33,387 nucleotides of DNA. Source: Ignavibacteria bacterium. Its GTDB lineage: Bacteria; Elusimicrobiota; Endomicrobiia; PHAN01. Made by a program: the position numbers and the translations under genes. Under the pieces are notes generated by a model. It did not search any database and was not told the origin of the DNA. It saw only the letters and a list, made by a program, of their open reading frames with translations. The stretch is from positions 1 through 33,387 of the forward strand of contig JBGFRZ010000063.1 in the NCBI GenBank assembly GCA_041694835.1, given 5' to 3'. Positions 2,018-26,192 of this stretch are shown here, in pieces (positions within the stretch are counted from its first letter, which is position 1; the number at the start of each line of letters is the position of its first letter).

Positions 2018-2517
2018 ACCACGAAGACACGAAACAAATTGTTTTTTGTCTTTGTAATCTTGTAAATCTGCGTTCATCTGCGTTCAATTATTTTTTAGGA
2101 CGCAGATTTTCGCAGATTTGGTAGATATGCCAATCTTGTCAAGAACGGCATTGAGCTGCGTCCAAAAATAAAAAAGCGGTTGTAGAAATAGGACGCAGAT
2201 TTTCGCAGATGAGTTTATAGTTGCTTTAATCTGCGTTTATCAAAGTTGTTTCTGCGTTCATCTGCGTTCAATTGCTTTTGGTTTTTTAGGACGCGGATAA
2301 AGACCGATGTATCGGGATTAAAAAACTTTACTACGGAAGCACGAAACTTGTAATCGGGGATTAAAATTTTTTTTCGTGCTTTCCAACTTTCGTGTTTTGT
2401 GGCAAAGAAAAAATAAACCACAGATGAATACGGATGGAGACAGATATTACGGAAAAAAATTCGTGTAATTCGTGGTTACGTTTTTTAATCTGCGTATATC
2501 TGCGTTTATCCGTGGTT
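2018..2517. repeat. Intergenic mosaic of periodic inverted-repeat elements (ACGCAGAT type in reverse orientation, CACGAAA type, CACAGAT type)
   Basis: 2190-2273 is the reverse complement of the 84-bp unit at 19418-19501 and 25239-25322. 2415-2517 resembles 8095-8187. The cacgaaa/tttcgtg arms at 2018-2034 and 2330-2402 resemble 7621-7690. Confidence 0.9.
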
Positions 2518-7430: not shown

Positions 7431-7744
7431 ACACTGATAAACATAGAAAAAATCCGTGATTTCCATGTCAAGATTTTATAATTTAATGTCTGCTGCCGCT
7501 ACACCAAAATGTTAATTACCACAAAGACGCGGAGAAAAATGAGGTAGTTCAAGAACTACCCCGATTGTCATCGGGAAAATTACCGACGGAGATGTAAGTT
7601 CCGTGTTATTAAAACTCTGAACCACGAAGACGCGAAAACGCGAAATCGGAGACTTTTTTCGTGATTTCTAACTTTCGTACTTTCGTGGTAAAGTTTTTTC
7701 TCTGTGTCTCTGTGGTGAGTTTTAGCGAAGCGTCAGTGAACCCT
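7420..7744. repeat. Mosaic of palindromic elements downstream of, and overlapping the end of, the sulfite reductase gene
   Basis: cacggat...atccgtg at about 7422-7458. GGTAGTTC-AA-GAACTACC at 7543-7560. CCCGAT..ATCGGG at 7560-7575. accacgaa...ttcgtggt at 7621-7689. 7711-7744 matches 19684-19717 at 33 of 34 nt. Confidence 0.8.
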
Positions 7745-7827: not shown

Positions 7828-8187
7828 TTTTTAATCTGTGTTTATCCATGTTAATCTGTTAAAGAATCAAAAAATATGAAACCACAGATGGACACAGATA
7901 TTACGGAAAAAAATTCATGTAATTCGTGGTTACGTTTTTTAATCTGTGTTTATCCGTGTTAATCTGTTAAAGAATCAAAAAATATGAAACCACAGATGGA
8001 CACAGATATTACGGAAAAAAATTCATGTAATTCGTGGTTACGTTTTTTAATCTGTGTTTATCCGTGTTAATCTGTTAAAGAATCAAAAAATATGAAACCA
8101 CAGATGGACACAGATGTTACGAAAAAAAAATCGTGTAATTCGTGGTTGCGTTTTTTAATCTGTGTGTATCTGTGTTTATCCGTGGTT
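7828..8187 (+). repeat. Tandem repeat, period 108 bp, about 3 copies, made of CACAGAT/ATCTGTG palindromic elements
   Basis: aaaccacagatggacacagat starts at 7879, 7987 and 8095. Copies 1 and 2 are near-identical; copy 3 has several substitutions. Confidence 0.95.
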
Positions 8188-19205: not shown

Positions 19206-19582
19206 AATTGGACGCAGATAAAGGTGGATAAACGCAGATTAAAGCAACCATAAAATCATCGCCGATTACTACACTCGGGGGCAGGTTCTGCGTTCATCCT
19301 GTAAATCTGCGTCCTAAAATTTATCAGGAACATTTCTAATGGGACGCAGATAAACGCAGAAAAGACAGGATTAAGAATTATCTGCGTTAATCTTGTAAAT
19401 CTGCGTCCTAAAAAACTAATTGAACGCAGATGAACGCAGAAATAACTTTGATAAACGCAGATTAAAGCAACTATAAACTCATCTGCGAAAGTCCGCGTCC
19501 TAAAAAACTAATTGAACGCAGATATACGCAGAAAAAACAGGATTTAAGAATTATCTGCGTTAATCTTGTAAATCTGCGTCCT
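19206..19582 (+). repeat. Array of four palindromic units with 9-nt periodic arms (G[G/A]ACGCAGAT...ATCTGCGTCCT)
   Basis: Units at 19206-19315, 19342-19409, 19418-19501 and 19510-19582, joined by A-rich linkers. Two interior subtypes alternate. Confidence 0.93.
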
Positions 19583-19585
19583 AAA

Positions 19586-19616
19586 TATTACTTGAACCAT
19601 ATATCATCACCTCTAT
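19586..19616. repeat. Exact 31-bp copy of 20478-20508 (5' UTR, RBS and first five codons of the antitoxin gene)
   Basis: TATTACTTGAACCATATATCATCACCTCTAT at both positions. Flanking bases differ on both sides. Confidence 0.95.
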
Positions 19617-19618
19617 GA

Positions 19619-19657
19619 CCCCCGATTACTACACTCGGGGGCAGGTTCTATCGGGGG
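19619..19657. repeat. CCCCCGA-TTACTACAC-TCGGGGG-CAGGTTCT hairpin element
   Basis: 28 bp identical at 19262-19289 and 19622-19649. A variant lies at 20817-20845 and a partial reverse copy at 22122-22136. Confidence 0.85.
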
Positions 19658-19822
19658 TTTTTCTCTGCGCTCTCTGCTCCCCTTGTGGTGAGTTTTAGCG
19701 AAGCGTCAATGAACCCTATTTCACACTTTGATTGTGGTTGCCGGAAGCGGATATGAATTTGTTATTGAATCACCAATGAGACGGCCGTGCGGGCGCTCTT
19801 GTGGTTAAAGATTTTTCAGGAA

Positions 19823-20212
19823 TTATATAGTTGATATTGAAAAGAGTGCAACAATTTCTCTCAATACAGAGTCGAAGGCGGGCTCATTAGTCGGAAGAAC
19901 ATCATCTTCACTTTTAAAGTGCTTATGGTGGGGAAATGTGCTAATTGCTTTATAATGAGGGGCGTTATCATAACGAAAAATAATTTTTCCAGTTCTTGTT
20001 TGGTAATGATACGAATATTGAATTTTATTGTGTTGTGTTGAATCGATTATTTCCAGCAGGTAAAGCTTTGAGATATCAATAAATGTAATGTGCCCTTTTA
20101 CTTTTCCTAAACTGGTTGAGCGGGATTCAAAGATGATTGTTTCGGATAAAATGAAAGGTGAGAAGTTTTTCAGGGAATGTCGTATCTTATCGAAATATTT
20201 TTCAATCAGCAA
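19823..20212 (-). CDS. DUF6516/TumE-like toxin of a type II toxin-antitoxin pair
   Basis: Motifs YSYHYQ, IFRYDNAPHY and TFPHHKH. TTG at 20212 overlaps the antitoxin end; 20236 is an alternative start. Confidence 0.78.
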   Translation of the reverse strand: MLIEKYFDKIRHSLKNFSPFILSETIIFESRSTSLGKVKGHITFIDISKLYLLEIIDSTQHNKIQYSYHYQTRTGKIIFRYDNAPHYKAISTFPHHKHFKSEDDVLPTNEPAFDSVLREIVALFSISTI

Positions 20213-20492
20213 ATTTAATCTCTCGAATTTCGGCAAGTTTGTTTTTCAATCTGTTAAGAATTTCTTTTTCGCCAGCCCATTCAATAAAATCAATTTTATC
20301 ACCCAGAAGTCCCTGTTGAAACTTTTTGTAGAAGGAGTCTGTTTTCATCTTGTAATGTTTTTCAAATTGTTCAAGAATCTTTTTTGTCTGATTGATAGCA
20401 ATTTTAAGAGAATATTCTCTATTTCTGACCGTTTCTTCAAGGAGAACCCGAATGTTTTTTTTGTTATTGGGTTCGATTATTACTTGAACCAT
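20202..20492 (-). CDS. TumA-like antitoxin
   Basis: FEKHYKMKTDSFYKKFQQGLLGDKIDFIEW signature. RBS GAGGTG. It lies upstream of and overlaps the toxin gene. Confidence 0.75.
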   Translation of the reverse strand: MVQVIIEPNNKKNIRVLLEETVRNREYSLKIAINQTKKILEQFEKHYKMKTDSFYKKFQQGLLGDKIDFIEWAGEKEILNRLKNKLAEIREIKFAD

Positions 20493-20515
20493 ATATCATC
20501 ACCTCTATAAAGACG

Positions 20516-20544
20516 ATTATAATAAAAATATATAAAAAAGTCAA
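20516..20544 (-). promoter_or_regulatory. Sigma70 promoter of the TA operon
   Basis: On the minus strand: TTGACT (20544-20539), 17 nt, TATAAT (20521-20516). Predicted +1 is at about 20508-20509. Confidence 0.8.
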
Positions 20545-20632
20545 AAAGGCAAATTCCGTATATTCTGTTCGTCGATTGATTGAAGATGTTGAGTCCGCTT
20601 TTTTATCTGACATTTGGCATAAAGAAATAAAG

Positions 20633-20902
20633 ACAGCGAATAGCAAATAGCAATAGCGAATAGTGATTGACGACCGGTGATAGGTGTTGTAGTTGCCGAC
20701 CTGCCCCGTTATGGCAGGGTTTATCGGCTATGTAGCGCGAATGGATTTCCGATACAGAGATTCGGGAATGACAAGACAAAAAAACGAAAATTGTAGCGGC
20801 ACAGTTCCCCGACAACGACCCCCGATTACTACATTCGGGAACAGGCATTCGGGGACAATCTTTACGGTGACTATATGTTGCACCACAAGGCGGCGCTGCT
20901 AC
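20633..20902. repeat. Nested REP-like mosaic upstream of the GT4 gene
   Basis: AGCGAAT/AGCAAAT heptamers at 20635-20663. GCCGA..CCTGCC..GGCAGG..TCGGC at about 20694-20728. TGGATT..CGGGAATGACA at 20742-20773. GTAGCGGC...GCTGCTAC at 20793-20902 encloses the CCCCGATTACTAC element. Confidence 0.7.
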
Positions 20903-20926
20903 GATTGCGTATGACAAAATGATTTT

Positions 20927-22006
20927 ATGTCGAAACCCAAAATATTTTGTCTCTCAACAAGTTTAAACATCGGCGGAGCGGAAAAATTTTTAACGACGGT
21001 TGTAGAAAAATTAGGACATAGATACGATTTTACCGTCGGGTATTTGAAAGATAGGGGCTATTACGGCAAATATCTTTCCGACGAGAAAGGCATAAAAGTA
21101 ATAAAATTTAACTGCCCGTGGTCGCTTAAAAATTATTTGCTTGAGAATGACTTTCGCATTCTGCACACTTTTCTTTATCGCGCCAATATATTCGGTCGTT
21201 TTTCGGGAAAACTCGCCGGGTCGCCGCACATAATTTCAACTCAACTTGCAATCGATAAATGGAAAAGATGGTACTATGTACTTCTTGACAGATGGACTGC
21301 CAGATGGTGTTCTACAATCATTGCCAATTCCGAGTCGGCAAAAATGACTCTGATATGCCGCGAAAAAATCCCCGCGAAAAAAATCAAAGTAATATATAAC
21401 GGTTTAGATTTTGATAAAATAATAGCGGTTAAACCGTCGGAAGAAATAAGAAAAGAGTTTGGACTCAATGAAAGTGAGCCGGTAATAATTTGTGTTACAA
21501 GATTGCACTATGAAAAAGGGACGGACTTACTGCCGTCTATCGCATCAAAAGTTAAAAATGGTATTTTTCTGATTGTGGGTGATGGTCCCCAGAGGAATAA
21601 GTTGGAGGTTGTGGTAAGAGAGCGGGGATTAAGCGATAGATTTCGGATTCTCGGCTGGCGTAAGGACGTCTTGGCGTTGCTGAAAATCTCCGACATATTT
21701 CTTTTACCTTCAAGGGAAGAGAGTTTTTCGCAGGCCTTGCTTGAGGCGTTTTCCGCGGGTCTCCCCGCAGTTGTTTCAAATGTCGGCGGCATAAAAGAGT
21801 TGGTAGAAGACGGCAAAACAGGATTTCTGATAAAGCCCGGCGCTCTCGACGATTTCAGTGGTAAAATAAATTTTCTTATTGAAAATCCGTCAGAGGCGAA
21901 GAAAATGGGTACAGCGGGGTTTGAAAAAGCGAAGGATTTTTCTGAGGACAAAATGATTGCTGCCGTCGACACCTTATACGACGATTTATTGGTTTTAAAA
22001 AGATAA
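20927..22006 (+). CDS. Glycosyltransferase family 4 (GT-B)
   Basis: Motifs IGGAEK, IYNGLD, VGDGP, PSREESFSQALLEA and VGGIKELV. Confidence 0.92.
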   Translation: MSKPKIFCLSTSLNIGGAEKFLTTVVEKLGHRYDFTVGYLKDRGYYGKYLSDEKGIKVIKFNCPWSLKNYLLENDFRILHTFLYRANIFGRFSGKLAGSPHIISTQLAIDKWKRWYYVLLDRWTARWCSTIIANSESAKMTLICREKIPAKKIKVIYNGLDFDKIIAVKPSEEIRKEFGLNESEPVIICVTRLHYEKGTDLLPSIASKVKNGIFLIVGDGPQRNKLEVVVRERGLSDRFRILGWRKDVLALLKISDIFLLPSREESFSQALLEAFSAGLPAVVSNVGGIKELVEDGKTGFLIKPGALDDFSGKINFLIENPSEAKKMGTAGFEKAKDFSEDKMIAAVDTLYDDLLVLKR

Positions 22007-22018
22007 AAGAAAAGATTG

Positions 22019-22160
22019 AACCACAGATGGACGCAGATGTCATTCCAGTCAGAATGGTTTTATCGGGGAACGGGGAACCCCGTTTGCACGGGGACGATGT
22101 CTATGATTATGGATTCTAAATAGAACCTGTCCCCGAAATTTGTATGTAAATCTGCGTCCT
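22019..22160. repeat. Single palindromic unit whose arms enclose about 105 bp of other hairpin fragments
   Basis: Left arm AACCACAGATGGACGCAGAT at 22019-22038 and right arm TGTAAATCTGCGTCCT at 22145-22160. Inside are GTCATTCC, AACGGGG-AA-CCCCGTT and AGAACCTGTCCCCGA. Confidence 0.8.
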
Positions 22161-22196
22161 AATAGTTTTTGACGATAATAAAGAGGATGAGAGTAT

Positions 22197-23465
22197 ATGA
22201 AAGACAATTACAAAATCGCCGTTATAGGTCTTGGGTATGTCGGGTTGCCGCTTGCGCTTGAGTTTGCAAAAAACGGAATCGAGGTTCTTGGTATAGACAC
22301 GGACGAAAAGAAAACCGACATGATAAATCGCGGAAAAAGTTATATAACCGATGTTCCGATGGCGGGAATTAAATCCGCTGTTGGCAAAAGAAAATTATCG
22401 GCAACGTCTGATTTTTCCAAATTGAGAAAATATGATGTTATAATAATCTGCGTGCCAACACCTTTACGGAAATCGAAAGAACCAGATGTTTCATATGTCG
22501 TCTCAGCCGCTCAAGAGGTTAAAAAGTATTTGAGAAAAGGCCATCTTGTGATTCTTGAGTCGACCACATATCCCGGAACCACGAGAGAACTCGTTTTGCC
22601 TATGTTTGAAGAAACAAGACTGAAATGCGGCAAGGATTTTTATTTAGCGTTTTCGCCCGAGCGAGTTGACCCCGCAAATAAAATCTATAAAATTCACAAC
22701 ACCCCGAAAATAGTCGGCGGCATAACTAAAAAATGTACAGATATGGCTTATGCTCTCTACTCCAGAATTATCGAAAAAGTGCTCAAGGTTTCGTCCAGCG
22801 AATCGGCGGAGATGGTTAAACTCCTTGAAAACACATTCAGGGCGGTGAACATAGCTCTCGTGAACGAGGTCGCACTTATGTGTGAAAAATTGAAAATTGA
22901 TGTCTGGGAGGTTATCAGCGCCGCAGCCACAAAACCCTTTGGTTTTATGCCGTTTTATCCCGGCCCCGGAATAGGGGGGCATTGCATTCCTTTAGACCCT
23001 CATTATCTTTCCTGGAAGTTAAAGACGCTAAATTTTTTCTCTCGATTTATTGAACTTGCTGGCGATATAAACTCGAACATGCCCGAGTATGTGGTTAGAA
23101 GAATTTCGGCGATTTTCGACAAAAAAAGCAAAACAGTTAATGGCTCAAAAATTCTTATTCTTGGAGTCGCATACAAACCAAATGTCAGCGATTGGCGGGA
23201 GTCGCCTGCTATAGACATAATAAAACTGTTGAAAGAAAGGAACGCCTTTGTGGATTATTGCGACCCTTTTGTGCCTGTGCTTGATGAGACAAAAATGAAG
23301 TCGAAAAAATATCTCCATTCTTTGTTCGGAAAATATGATTGCGTGGTTATAGTGACCAATCACAGCGATTTTGACATCGCCGCTCTTGTGAAAAGTTCAA
23401 AACTTATTTTCGACGCAAGAAATGCGACACATGGCATAGATGACAAGAAAATTACAAGATTATAA
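22197..23465 (+). CDS. UDP-N-acetylhexosamine 6-dehydrogenase (WbpA/WecC/TviB family)
   Basis: Motifs GLGYVGLP, CVPTP, ESTTYPGTT, SPERVDP, KLLENTFR, GGHCIPLDP and AYKPNVSDWRESP. Confidence 0.94.
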   Translation: MKDNYKIAVIGLGYVGLPLALEFAKNGIEVLGIDTDEKKTDMINRGKSYITDVPMAGIKSAVGKRKLSATSDFSKLRKYDVIIICVPTPLRKSKEPDVSYVVSAAQEVKKYLRKGHLVILESTTYPGTTRELVLPMFEETRLKCGKDFYLAFSPERVDPANKIYKIHNTPKIVGGITKKCTDMAYALYSRIIEKVLKVSSSESAEMVKLLENTFRAVNIALVNEVALMCEKLKIDVWEVISAAATKPFGFMPFYPGPGIGGHCIPLDPHYLSWKLKTLNFFSRFIELAGDINSNMPEYVVRRISAIFDKKSKTVNGSKILILGVAYKPNVSDWRESPAIDIIKLLKERNAFVDYCDPFVPVLDETKMKSKKYLHSLFGKYDCVVIVTNHSDFDIAALVKSSKLIFDARNATHGIDDKKITRL

Positions 23466-24972
23466 TCTATATCTCGTTTCAATTTTACTTATCGGTTTTG
23501 TTTTGAGAATAACAGGCATCAACTGGGGGTTGCCGCTTAAACATCTACATATAGATGAATCCGTTGTTATATTTTATTCGGTCAGGATGTTGACTGGGAA
23601 TCTGAATCCCGCGCCTTTTTTCGACTACCCGTCACTTTTTCTCTATATACTCTTTTTCACCTACGCAGCCGTGTTTTTGCTCGGCAAAACTTTTGGCTTT
23701 TATGGAAGTTTGGACGAATATGTCGGGCTTTACAAAAATTTTGACCCGTCAATTTTTTATCTTACGGGAAGATTTCTGAATGTGATTTTTTCCGTCGCCA
23801 CGATATATCTGGTTTATAAGATAGGGGAAAAACTGAGTGGCAAAAAAGCCGGACTTATCGCCTCTTTTATGTTTTCAATCGCACCGCTTCATGTTTTACA
23901 TTCGCATTATGCCACAGTGGATGTCCCCGCTCTTTTTTTTGCCATTCTTTCTTGCTACTTCATTATATCTTATCACTTGAGCGGTAGAATTAGAGAATTT
24001 TTTATGGCAAGTTTTTTTCTGGGTCTCGCCGTGTCTACAAAATATTATCCGGTAATTTTTATTTTGAATCTTTTCGCTGCTTTGGTCATAAACGTTAAAA
24101 AACAAAAATTGTCGCCAAACAAATTGTTTCCTTTGGGTGGCGTCTCTTTTATTTTGATTTTATTTGGTTTTTTTGCAGGCACTCCGTTCGTCGTTATAGA
24201 TTTTAAAAACTTTTCAAACAGATTTTCTCATATTTTCGAAAATGTGATTTTTGGAGATAGAATTTTTAATTTGTTTTATTTTGGCAGGGACTTTTTATTG
24301 GGATTAAAGACTGCATTTTTAGGACTCATCGATGGTCTCGGATTGTTTTTATTCGTCGTTTCTTTGATGGGAGTTATCTGGTCTCTTGTGAAGTTTAAGA
24401 AAAATTCATTGTTTTTCCTGACCTTGCCTGCGGTGTTTATTTTTTTTGTCAGTTTTTGGAAAGTATTGTCGGCCCATTACTTGTTTCCAATTCATCCTTT
24501 TTTCTTGATATCGGGAGCAATTTTACTCGGCGATATGGCGAACAAAAAATCCCGCATTATCTTGATGGTTGTTTTGACGACATTGTCAACCCTGCCCAAA
24601 ACGGCATATTCGGTTTATCTTTTGACGCGTCCGGACACAAGAGTGGAAGCTTATAGATGGATTAAAAAAAATATCCCGGCAGGAACCAATATTTTAAGAA
24701 GTCCGTCCACGCCCAACTTCAGCTCAAAAGATCCTTACCGAGTCACGTGGGACGGCGAATGGAAAATATTCGACAAAATGTGCTCGCGTATTTTGGAAAA
24801 ATACGATTATATTCTCATGACACTCAATCCGGAATTTGAAAAAAGATTTTCGGAAAATCTCATTTCTCTTAATGAGTTTAGCAGGGTGAAATTTGCACCA
24901 CATCACAACCCGACTGTAAAAATATATAAAGTTGCAAATATGAAACCACAGATGAACACAGTTGAGCACTGA
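23440..24972 (+). CDS. GT-C fold (ArnT/PMT-like) membrane glycosyltransferase
   Basis: N-terminal TM followed by WGLP..HIDE, FDYPSL, SHYATVD and STKY. The last ~10 codons derive from a repeat arm. Confidence 0.82.
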   Translation: MTRKLQDYNLYLVSILLIGFVLRITGINWGLPLKHLHIDESVVIFYSVRMLTGNLNPAPFFDYPSLFLYILFFTYAAVFLLGKTFGFYGSLDEYVGLYKNFDPSIFYLTGRFLNVIFSVATIYLVYKIGEKLSGKKAGLIASFMFSIAPLHVLHSHYATVDVPALFFAILSCYFIISYHLSGRIREFFMASFFLGLAVSTKYYPVIFILNLFAALVINVKKQKLSPNKLFPLGGVSFILILFGFFAGTPFVVIDFKNFSNRFSHIFENVIFGDRIFNLFYFGRDFLLGLKTAFLGLIDGLGLFLFVVSLMGVIWSLVKFKKNSLFFLTLPAVFIFFVSFWKVLSAHYLFPIHPFFLISGAILLGDMANKKSRIILMVVLTTLSTLPKTAYSVYLLTRPDTRVEAYRWIKKNIPAGTNILRSPSTPNFSSKDPYRVTWDGEWKIFDKMCSRILEKYDYILMTLNPEFEKRFSENLISLNEFSRVKFAPHHNPTVKIYKVANMKPQMNTVEH

Positions 24973-24977
24973 AAATC

Positions 24978-25420
24978 AATTGGACGCAGATAAACGCAGA
25001 AAAACAGGATTTAAGAATTATTTGCGACAATCTGCGAAAATCTGCGTCCTAAAAAACTAATTGAACGCAGATGAACGCAGAAACAACTTTGATAAATGCA
25101 GATTAAACATTCATAAAATCATCCGCGACAATCTGCGTCCTAAAAAATAATTGAACGCAGATGAACGCAGAAACAACTTTGATAAACGCAGATTAAACAT
25201 TCATAAAATCATCCACGACAATCTGCGTCCTAAAAAATAATTGAACGCAGATGAACACAGAAACAACTTTGATAAACGCAGATTAAAGCAACTATAAACT
25301 CATCTGCGGAAATCTGCGTCCTAAAATTCATTAGTAACATTTCTAATGGGATGCGGATGAACGCAGATTGACGGGATAATAAACGAAAAAATCCGTGTTA
25401 ATCTTGTAAATCCGCGTCCT
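24978..25420 (+). repeat. Array of five palindromic ACGCAGAT/ATCTGCGT units; the central three have a 90-bp period
   Basis: Units at 24978-25050, 25059-25141, 25149-25231, 25239-25322 and about 25348-25420. Confidence 0.95.
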
Positions 25421-25436: not shown

Positions 25437-26192
25437 ATGATTGAAAATCACAAAATGAAGGTTATTGTTGTCCTGCCCGCTTACAACGCTTCAAAGACAC
25501 TTGAAAAAACCTTAAAACAACTTCCCGGGGGTTGCTACGACGATGTAATACTTATCGACGATGCGTCTGCCGACAACACGGTTGAGATTGCGAAAAAATT
25601 AGGTTTAAAAATTTTCACTCATCCTAAAAATCTGGGTTATGGCGGGAATCAAAAAACATGTTATGCCGAAGCGCTCAAAATGGGAGCGGATATAATTGTA
25701 ATGGTTCATCCTGATTATCAATACGATCCGCGAGTCGTTCCTTATATGGTGGGACTCATAAAAGATGGGATTTGCGATATCGTTTTAGGCAACAGGATAA
25801 GGACTCGCAGAGAGGCGCTTTATGGAGGAATGCCAGTCTATAAGTATTTTGCAAACAGATTTCTTACAATAATAGAGAATTTTTTTCTTGGACAGAATCT
25901 CGGTGAGTTTCACACCGGTTTGAGAGCTTTTCGTCGAGGGGTCCTTGAAAAAATAAACTGGCAACTTAACTCTAACGATTTTGTTTTTGATCAGGAGATA
26001 CTTGTGCAGGCGGTTTTCTTTGGATACAGGATCGGAGATGTGCCTGTTCCCACAAAATACTTTCCGGATGCTTCGTCGATAGATTTTTCAAGAAGCATAA
26101 AATACGGACTTTCCACGCTATTGGCGGTTGTGAAGTTTTTCCTTCACAAGAAGGGGCTGACGAAATTTAAAATATTCGAACCCAGAGTATGA
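25437..26192 (+). CDS. Glycosyltransferase family 2 (polyprenol-phosphate glycosyltransferase, DPM1-like)
   Basis: Motifs VLPAYN, IDDASAD, NLGYGGNQK, HPDYQYDP and EFHTGLRAF. Confidence 0.92.
   Translation: MIENHKMKVIVVLPAYNASKTLEKTLKQLPGGCYDDVILIDDASADNTVEIAKKLGLKIFTHPKNLGYGGNQKTCYAEALKMGADIIVMVHPDYQYDPRVVPYMVGLIKDGICDIVLGNRIRTRREALYGGMPVYKYFANRFLTIIENFFLGQNLGEFHTGLRAFRRGVLEKINWQLNSNDFVFDQEILVQAVFFGYRIGDVPVPTKYFPDASSIDFSRSIKYGLSTLLAVVKFFLHKKGLTKFKIFEPRV

Follow-up and report, generated by a model that had tools for sequence, protein, structure and literature searches.

Intergenic arrays of palindromic units in an Elusimicrobiota genome as probable gene-less copies of a GxxExxY nuclease cassette

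The contig JBGFRZ010000063.1 from an Ignavibacteria bacterium (assembly GCA_041694835.1; placed by GTDB in Elusimicrobiota, Endomicrobiia, PHAN01) was analysed over its full length of 33,387 nt, which is referred to here as the window (contig C74 in our numbering). It belongs to a 1.9-Mb assembly of 89 contigs with 42.5% G+C. The 30 open reading frames (ORFs) of the window that were scanned against Pfam are housekeeping or sugar-pathway genes, except for one TumE/TumA toxin-antitoxin pair; none of them is a transposase, integrase or Cas gene, as a first-pass annotation made from the sequence alone had stated. Between these genes lie modular arrays of palindromic units whose arms are built from short phased words. 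The arrays probably consist of non-autonomous copies of a word-armed hairpin cassette that lack its gene; in its full form the cassette carries a GxxExxY nuclease gene (PF13366 / TIGR04256, PD-(D/E)XK-type). The sugar-operon gaps of the window appear to have been colonised repeatedly, and the genes are unbroken.

The coordinates of the units and linkers are collected in Table 1. The first-pass annotation had described units with the 5' end G(G/A)ACGCAGAT and the 3' end ATCTGCGTCC(T), in the order A'-B-A-B in the first array and B-A-A-A-B' in the second. The ends and the first order were recovered as described; the second order also stands, except that its two middle A units are not plain A but a variant sharing 69% identity with the copy at 19411-19505. 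The arm period had been given as 9 nt, whereas Tandem Repeats Finder returned a period of 10 at six places, and the ACGCAGA word is spaced 10 nt in the window arms (GAACGCAGAT-GAACGCAGAA). With at most one mismatch, ACGCAGAT occurs 76 times in the window versus 21.4 +/- 4.3 times in 100 shuffles (largest value 32). The units carry C-R-C-R-R-A words in sense orientation on the 5' side and their complements on the 3' side, with the outer frame GGACRCRGAT...ATCYGYGTCC and the terminal inverted repeats TAGGACGCAGAT...ATCTGCGTCCTA. In unit B' the outer words differ on both arms and the pairing is kept.

Adjacent units are connected either by a 12-13-nt linker (TAAAAAACTAATT; with its variants, TAAAAAA(C/T)(T/A)AATT) or by a 27-nt linker ending in AACATTTCTAATG. 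The long linker ending ...aacatttctaatggg is indeed common to both arrays (19303-19360 and 25310-25367, 90% over 58 nt), and the reported inverted A copy was found as 91 nt at 2189-2279 complementary to 25233-25323 (96%) and to 19412-19502 (95%). The earlier inventory was incomplete, since it lacked the solitary unit at 22029-22159, located between a glycosyltransferase family 4 (GT4) and a UDP-sugar dehydrogenase gene, the entire gap 2002-2557, which is full of inverted units, and an array of ACACAGAT words at 7828-8183. Interiors that recur at many loci and the lack of a cas gene among the 30 scanned ORFs distinguish the arrays from CRISPR arrays, and the window gave neither an Rfam match at gathering thresholds nor an rRNA match. 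Copy numbers in the tandem parts come from the assembly alone; this includes the 90-nt period at 25030-25326 (3.3 copies, 92% matches).

RNA folding predicted all 13 window units to be more stable than shuffled sequences on both strands (z -2.2 to -7.3), with arms of two to three helices of 7-10 bp and small internal loops between them. Type A folds better antisense to the cassette (e.g. -28.4 vs -17.6 kcal/mol); the G-U pairs of that strand become A-C mismatches on the cassette-sense strand. In both window arrays the transcribed strand is the weaker-folding strand for type A. No promoter-like or terminator-like site was found inside the window arrays.

The genome-wide search that the annotation had proposed placed the family at about 50 loci (50 clusters with at least three ACGCAGA words), so that it is not confined to the window. 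The units lie in either orientation to transcription and almost always between genes: 74 of the 84 copies of the end motif ATCTGCGTCCT fall outside crude ORF calls that together span 87% of the genome. Nine ACGCAGA-type arrays lie inside such calls and are possibly in-frame insertions or spurious ORFs. All units share the frame GRACGCAGAT-GAACGCAGA...TCTGCGAAAATCTGCGTCC with exchangeable interiors, and searches with the interior cores recovered 29 copies of A, 23 of C, six each of B and D, and two of E, plus singletons. In type C, the loop of the frame contains a nested second hairpin of CACGAAA words, and long B and D forms hold further inserts. The 29 A copies are spread over many contigs with a median pairwise identity of 94.9% (range 87-100%), and the nearest relative of each window A copy is on another contig or tied with one. 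Together with the inverted copy at 2191 this upholds the earlier view that whole units are copied, permuted and inverted. Copying also involves multi-unit blocks, since a C unit with the same linker stands directly before 11 of the 29 A copies, and local tandem duplication also contributes to array growth (e.g. 25030-25326, including the two A2 units at 25063-25230). Relative to transcription, 19 arrays are in the same and 17 in the opposite orientation (binomial p = 0.87), and counted by end motif the split is 30 to 26. Orientation is uniform in 23 of 35 multi-unit arrays; at least the three 'mixed' calls of the window arise because the ends of the first unit are symmetric. The genome also contains word repeats of 7-nt and 8-nt period.

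The first-pass annotation had stated that similar periodic inverted arms often flank GxxExxY genes. In the window no PF13366 match was found, its units being gene-less, and the single PF13366 / TIGR04256 gene of the genome (C61:38978-39316) is bracketed by GATAAACACAGAT words and their complements. Around 24 full-length PF13366 genes from Elusimicrobiota, C-R-C-R-R-A words upstream are forward in 71 cases and reverse in six, whereas downstream 63 are reverse and 13 forward. The genome G048, which belongs to another Elusimicrobiota family and contains 82 period-10 ACGCAGA word pairs, has a cassette with the exact frame of the window units (GGACGCAGATGAACGCAGAT-ORF-...AATCTGCGTCC). The GxxExxY protein of this cassette was the single query of a cross-phylum search, which returned 80 loci with 61-74% protein identity from Desulfobacterota, Planctomycetota, Nitrospirota, Bacteroidota, Ignavibacteriota, Chloroflexota, Acidobacteriota, other phyla and one archaeon. 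Cultured strains with related cassettes are Flavobacterium succinicans LMG 10402 and Draconibacterium orientale DSM 25947. Inverted flanks exceeded the 95th percentile of controls at 48 of 74 usable loci, and a flank score of at least 14 was reached at 31 of the 74 loci versus 0 controls. The frame GGACRCRGAT...ATCYGYGTCC occurs at 9 of the 80 loci, each with the start codon inside the 5' arm (cagATGaacgcagat). The association put forward in the annotation is real, as the same frame brackets PF13366 genes in G048 and at these nine loci of other phyla.

In other cassettes the words are spaced 10-20 nt. Both arms co-vary: in 12 of 16 cassettes the dominant 5' and 3' words are complements of each other, against a mean of 3.8 and a maximum of 10 in 2000 permutations. 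The catalytic residues E23, D62, E72 and K74 are invariant in 14 aligned GxxExxY proteins, including that of this genome. Searching the Protein Data Bank (PDB) with phmmer revealed no sequence relatives of the nuclease, and the best profile match (3cae, 'Endonuclease I', E = 0.33) was not significant. PF13366 / TIGR04256 is a large family, classified as 'Unknown' in a survey of PD-(D/E)XK proteins (PMC3424549).

The interior of type B agrees with the cassettes L111 and L120 at 18 of 19 positions just past the 5' arm, that is, at the expected place (AAACAGGATTTAAGAATTA aligned to AAACAGGATTTCA-AATTA), and also matches the cassette L041; the alignment score of 26 compares with a maximum of 25-26 in 200 shuffles. 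As type B matches the cassette beyond the 5' arm, it is, judged by these alignments, an internal-deletion derivative of the gene-bearing cassette that keeps the first codons. A corresponding origin of type A, as a relic of the 3' end of the ORF, was rejected, the alignments reaching only the arm word with scores within the shuffle range.

Filled and empty sites, the comparison of which had also been suggested, were examined in four genomes of the genus g31 that have the same word family and share about 32 kb of synteny at 80-90% identity. At nine orthologous sites a word hairpin is present in some genomes and replaced by a 1-29-nt spacer in others, and at one further site the arms are kept and the nested interior is swapped. 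In seven of the nine cases the insert stops 0-16 nt short of a start codon. An 86-nt insertion in G061 is flanked by a duplication of the 8-bp TATTTTAT, which is present in a single copy in G044 and G063. In the genome of the window, 8-9-bp matches lie directly at the edges of three arrays, one of them the second window array, where the left copy of TGAAAATCA (24970-24978) takes in the stop codon of the upstream gene. The first-pass reading is largely supported: the units fill intergenic gaps and behave like miniature mobile DNA, with gain and loss seen for the sister hairpins of g31. The gain and loss observed there presumably also occur in this genome, and insertion may favour positions a few bases upstream of start codons. 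Apart from the word hairpins, a 41-nt palindrome (CCTGTTAGA...TCTAACAGG) with a GGTTGAC duplication lies in frame within a coding region of G059:C45 (L165 4463-4503), and this site is empty in G044, G063 and G061.

The genome-specific end ATCTGCGTCCTAAAA occurs 71 times in this genome and 0-1 times in each of 40 relatives, and a 400-kb sample of G001, from the same family, contained almost no word repeats. Among 151 Elusimicrobiota genomes, the period-10 word pair is abundant (at least six) in seven, namely this one and six of the family f17. The PF13366 family is present in 21 of the 151, comprising five of the seven word-rich genomes versus 16 of the 144 others (Fisher p = 5.8e-4, a value that overstates the co-occurrence because related genomes are not independent). 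Units with this frame and no gene were found in 13 stretches of IMG/VR viral contigs; searches of GenBank phages matched neither the array DNA nor, at E <= 1e-10, the L041 protein, and pattern scans of metagenome contigs gave no match. A patchy distribution combined with arms that are nearly identical between phyla is indicative of horizontal transfer.

In the reading that we consider the most probable, the full cassette consists of a 5' arm with two to three sense-strand ACGCAGAT-type words about 10 nt apart, a start codon within this arm, the ORF and a 3' arm of complementary words. The window units would have kept both arms and lost the gene, type B retaining its first codons. Arrays grow as new units land beside or inside residents (nesting), as multi-unit blocks are copied and as units are duplicated locally in tandem. 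Several results weigh against it. The only GxxExxY gene of the assembly has words of the sister type ACACAGAT, so that the dominant ACGCAGA family is without a cognate gene here, and G044 and G063 are rich in hairpins and lack a PF13366 match. Nucleotide alignments could not trace the type A interior to a GxxExxY gene, and derivation from the gene was shown for type B but for none of A, C, D and E. Arm variation inside this genome is too limited to demonstrate compensation (position 7, table [[128,7],[10,3]], p = 0.045). The other eight of the nine filled/empty g31 sites have no clean duplication, and flank duplications are not enriched in this genome (mean longest shared string 5.55 vs 5.43 in mismatched flank pairs).

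More tentatively, the sequences allow the proposal that the nuclease recognises the arms and mobilises or maintains the units, which we regard as possible rather than probable. A wider proposal is to be held with the same reserve: GxxExxY genes with word arms might form an undescribed class of selfish elements that extends across phyla and into viral contigs, in which a PD-(D/E)XK nuclease reads the phased words of its own arms and drives insertion upstream of start codons. Resident hairpins would then offer their loops and edges as landing pads, the modular arrays would be the fossil record of repeated landings, and orphan gene-less families would outlast their nuclease.

Among published systems, Ssn/NTS-SRM comes closest in its logic, that of a nuclease whose cognate hairpins are dispersed, and it offers a live alternative for the role of the enzyme: a site-specific nuclease with a cell-level function, e.g. 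control of incoming or single-stranded DNA, the repeats being spread by recombination and not by the nuclease as a transposase. Chenal et al. (2025; PMC11893778) describe a small nuclease gene with copies of a hairpin motif on its flanks, the motif being scattered elsewhere in up to hundreds of copies and co-occurring with the gene across phyla; 42% of ssnA homologues are flanked by the motif on both sides, the gene is present in 81% of motif-rich genomes, and the role in Neisseria is modulation of transformation, not mobility. The layout found here (48 of 74 genes with inverted flanks, the gene in five of seven word-rich genomes) and the conserved catalytic residues of GxxExxY proteins are in line with such a function. 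However, the fold is PD-(D/E)XK (PF13366 / TIGR04256) instead of GIY-YIG, and the units are multi-helix hairpins of 67-145 nt, at least one gene-less type of which is apparently derived from the cassette. Moreover, sister hairpins come and go at operon junctions; this insertion polymorphism needs a DNA insertion process, which the Ssn-like model does not supply, and we consider the model unlikely as a whole. A role as RNA was judged about equally unlikely. Long imperfect stems in operon transcripts would be cut by RNase III and set the processing, stability or translation of neighbouring mRNAs, as might be expected from units with stable folds between co-directional genes, from hairpins that often lie between ribosome-binding site and start codon, and from the RNase III gene at C30:8179-8559. 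According to PMC4990558, the complementary borders of intervening sequences are cut by RNase III, and the ORF-bearing intervening sequences in 23S rRNA of Coxiella and Leptospira resemble the cassette in that a small ORF is enclosed by complementary ends, which pair into a long stem. The 12 PF05635 genes of this genome have the same layout. The present units, in contrast, lie between protein-coding genes and not in helix 25/45 of 23S rRNA, their cargo is GxxExxY and not S23p, and their word period is 10 nt. As the arrays show no strand bias, a role as RNA is not favoured, and the better folding of type A on the untranscribed strand in both window arrays, the lack of Rfam matches and the lack of terminator-like or promoter-like sites inside the arrays speak against it as well.

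Mobilisation of elements of the repetitive extragenic palindromic (REP) or bacterial interspersed mosaic element (BIME) type by a REP-associated Y1 (IS200-like) transposase appears very improbable. Mosaics of palindromic units with linkers would suit it, as would the one Y1_Tnp gene of this genome, the presence of Y1_Tnp in all seven word-rich genomes versus 71 of the 144 others (78 of 151 in total; Fisher p = 0.014) and a Y1_Tnp gene of G059 that occupies the site of a word hairpin of G044. Yet none of 13 Y1_Tnp genes (one of this genome, ten of g31 and two of G048) is flanked by the words, 12 of them bear unrelated inverted ends instead, mostly GGGGACG..., the Y1 gene of this genome has no unit within 300 nt, and the same-family genomes G001 and G002 have Y1_Tnp without units. 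A REP is defined as a stem-loop of 20-40 bp with a stem of 8-9 bp, a loop of 4-5 nt and an unpaired GTAG or CGTC tag (PMC3733652). The units measure 67-145 nt or more, each arm forming two to three 7-10-bp helices and the interior spanning 25-110 nt, and the CGTC within ATCTGCGTCC is paired and not a free tag. Systems of REPs, their doublets (REPINs) and REP-associated tyrosine transposases (RAYTs) are similar in their dispersed intergenic palindromes, in a usually single-copy enzyme gene bracketed by the same repeats, in gene-less copies that far outnumber the genes and in lineage-specific expansions. They differ in that the enzyme here is PD-(D/E)XK and not HUH, the start codon of the gene lies inside the arm, each arm holds two to three phased words instead of one tagged 8-9-bp stem, the units stand head to tail whereas the mobile unit of a REPIN is an inverted doublet, and the Y1 genes of these genomes have other ends. 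There is equally little to commend phased binding sites of a host protein, which the 10-nt word spacing would place on one face of the helix, or an assembly artefact, as might be suspected from five contigs that end inside units (C54, C84, C51, C81, C71). Other cassettes space their words by 10-20 nt, each word is mirrored by its complement in the opposite arm, the arrays are embedded in a 33-kb contig, where unique sequence flanks them, and the same frame recurs in independent assemblies of many phyla and in viral contigs.

Miniature inverted-repeat transposable elements (MITEs) are short, gene-less and multi-copy, have inverted ends and derive by internal deletion from a gene-bearing element. 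The units match this description in being short, gene-less and multi-copy with inverted ends, and in the presumed internal deletion behind type B; they differ in the lack of a DDE transposase partner and, among the nine g31 sites compared, of a regular target duplication (one clean case), in arms that are periodic word arrays and in nesting within each other's loops. Enterobacterial BIMEs are mosaic arrays of REP-sized palindromic units in alternating orientation with few recurrent linkers. The window arrays are likewise mosaics of palindromic units with recurrent linkers, but their units are co-oriented and several times longer. A match to a known REP, BIME or MITE family had been named as an outcome that would refute the first-pass interpretation. 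The units do not fit the REP definition; of the MITE features, terminal inverted repeats are present and internal deletion was found for type B only.

In the main texts of the literature searched (supplementary files apart), no description of GxxExxY hairpin cassettes was found, and the term 'GxxExxY' is rare there, in one paper as a passing mention. New from this window are the exact cross-phylum frame, a probably deletion-derived unit type, block-wise mosaic arrays, and the filled/empty sites together with the test of the Y1 rival. The dispersed hairpins give the orphan PF13366 / TIGR04256 family a genomic context and a testable substrate, and would account for mosaic repeats in the intergenic gaps of this and similar uncultured genomes and for assembly breaks there. 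Should the nucleases indeed recognise their words, the family would offer a natural collection of small nucleases specific for sequence or structure, which is what the Ssn family turned out to be.

Table 1. Repeat units, linkers and associated features of the window (positions of the 33,387-nt stretch; strand as annotated; folds in kcal/mol).
Feature	Position	Strand	Remarks
Unit with F-type interior (...TTGACAAGATTGGCATATCTACC...), inverted	2098..2163	-	F interior at several loci
Unit A, inverted	2191..2269	-	100% identity to copies on C85, C49, C14
Large unit (219 nt)	2289..2507	-	Nested interior hairpins from other words (CACGAA, CACAGAT)
Tandem ACACAGAT-word hairpin array	7828..8183	.	108-nt period, 3.3 copies, 96% matches
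Unit A' (105 nt)	19210..19314	+	Shared frame, A-like 5' interior, small inserted CCGATTACTACACTCGGGGG-type hairpin; RNA fold -37.7, z -5.2
Long linker (27 nt, ...AACATTTCTAATG)	19315..19341	+	Precedes B-type units; likewise before B at C11, C39 7475, C39 19011
Unit B (67 nt)	19342..19408	+	Fold -24.0, z -4.5
Short linker TAAAAAACTAATT	19409..19421	+	Joins units
Unit A (79 nt)	19422..19500	+	98.7% identity to copy on contig C31
Unit B (68 nt)	19514..19581	+	
Solitary unit	22029..22159	+	Same outer words, 111-nt unrelated interior; fold -50.4, z -4.8
TGAAAATCA, possible 9-bp target duplication	left 24970..24978, right 25442..25450	+	Suggestive; no genome-wide excess of flank duplications
Unit B (68 nt)	24982..25049	+	Interior matches the first codons that follow the 5' arm in GxxExxY cassettes
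Unit A, variant A2 (78 nt)	25063..25140	+	C82 and C88 also carry the A2 core
Unit A, variant A2 (78 nt)	25153..25230	+	Tandem copy of A2 unit at 25063-25140
Unit A (79 nt)	25243..25321	+	
Long linker, second copy	25322..25348	+	90% over 58 nt
Unit B' (71 nt)	25349..25419	+	Outer words GGATGCGGAT / ATCCGCGTCC; fold -31.7, z -6.7

The TumE/TumA pair (19823-20492, minus strand; PF20126 with 79.9 bits, NF045776 weak) lies antisense within the sugar operon and has its own promoter-like site, TTGACT-17-TATAAT, at 20544-20516. A 31-nt exact copy of the ribosome-binding site and start of TumA (19586-19616 vs 20478-20508) adjoins the first array. The pair was considered as cargo between arms and rejected, its flanks being a mosaic of other repeat remnants with no matched arm pair.

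Many repeat mosaics have the 16-mer TGACGCTTCGCTAAAA at one edge, located 10-20 nt ahead of the first arm of the hairpin and in either orientation to genes; in the window it is found at 7720-7735 and 19693-19708, both on the minus strand. It does not fit a sigma-70 promoter. With at most one mismatch it occurs 42 times in this genome; G061 has 25 copies and five other genomes have 3-6 each, and nearly all of these genomes are rich in word hairpins. Seven arrays (including C39 7377-7569, C64 20801-21078 and C52 3935-4013) end with ...CCTAAAATAAT(C/G)AT-AGGAG, 5-10 nt before the next ATG, the C64 array with a differing end (...AATC-AGGAG), and most of the seven start with AGGAG-ATGATATATTAAATGG. 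In these cases the ribosome-binding site seems to coincide with the element or to be provided by it.

Multi-copy Y1_Tnp genes of about 230 aa with ends of their own (L190-L201; g31 and G048) form a separate repeat family. On G059:C115, a Y1_Tnp gene of 163 aa (L188 2187-2678, minus strand; PF01797, 28.5 bits) overlaps both flanking ORFs by a few bases. Judging by their translations, these ORFs resemble subunits of glycyl-tRNA synthetase (glyQ-like and glyS-like). The same junction holds a word hairpin in G044 and a 15-nt spacer in G063.

The 12 full-length genes of the PF05635 four-helix-bundle family (on C52, C55, C8, C81, C6, C39 and C7) each lie between complementary arms, which are composed of words with a 7-8-nt period such as AGAGCACAAG and GCGAATAGCAAATAG. 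These genes with their arms are a second cassette class in this genome.

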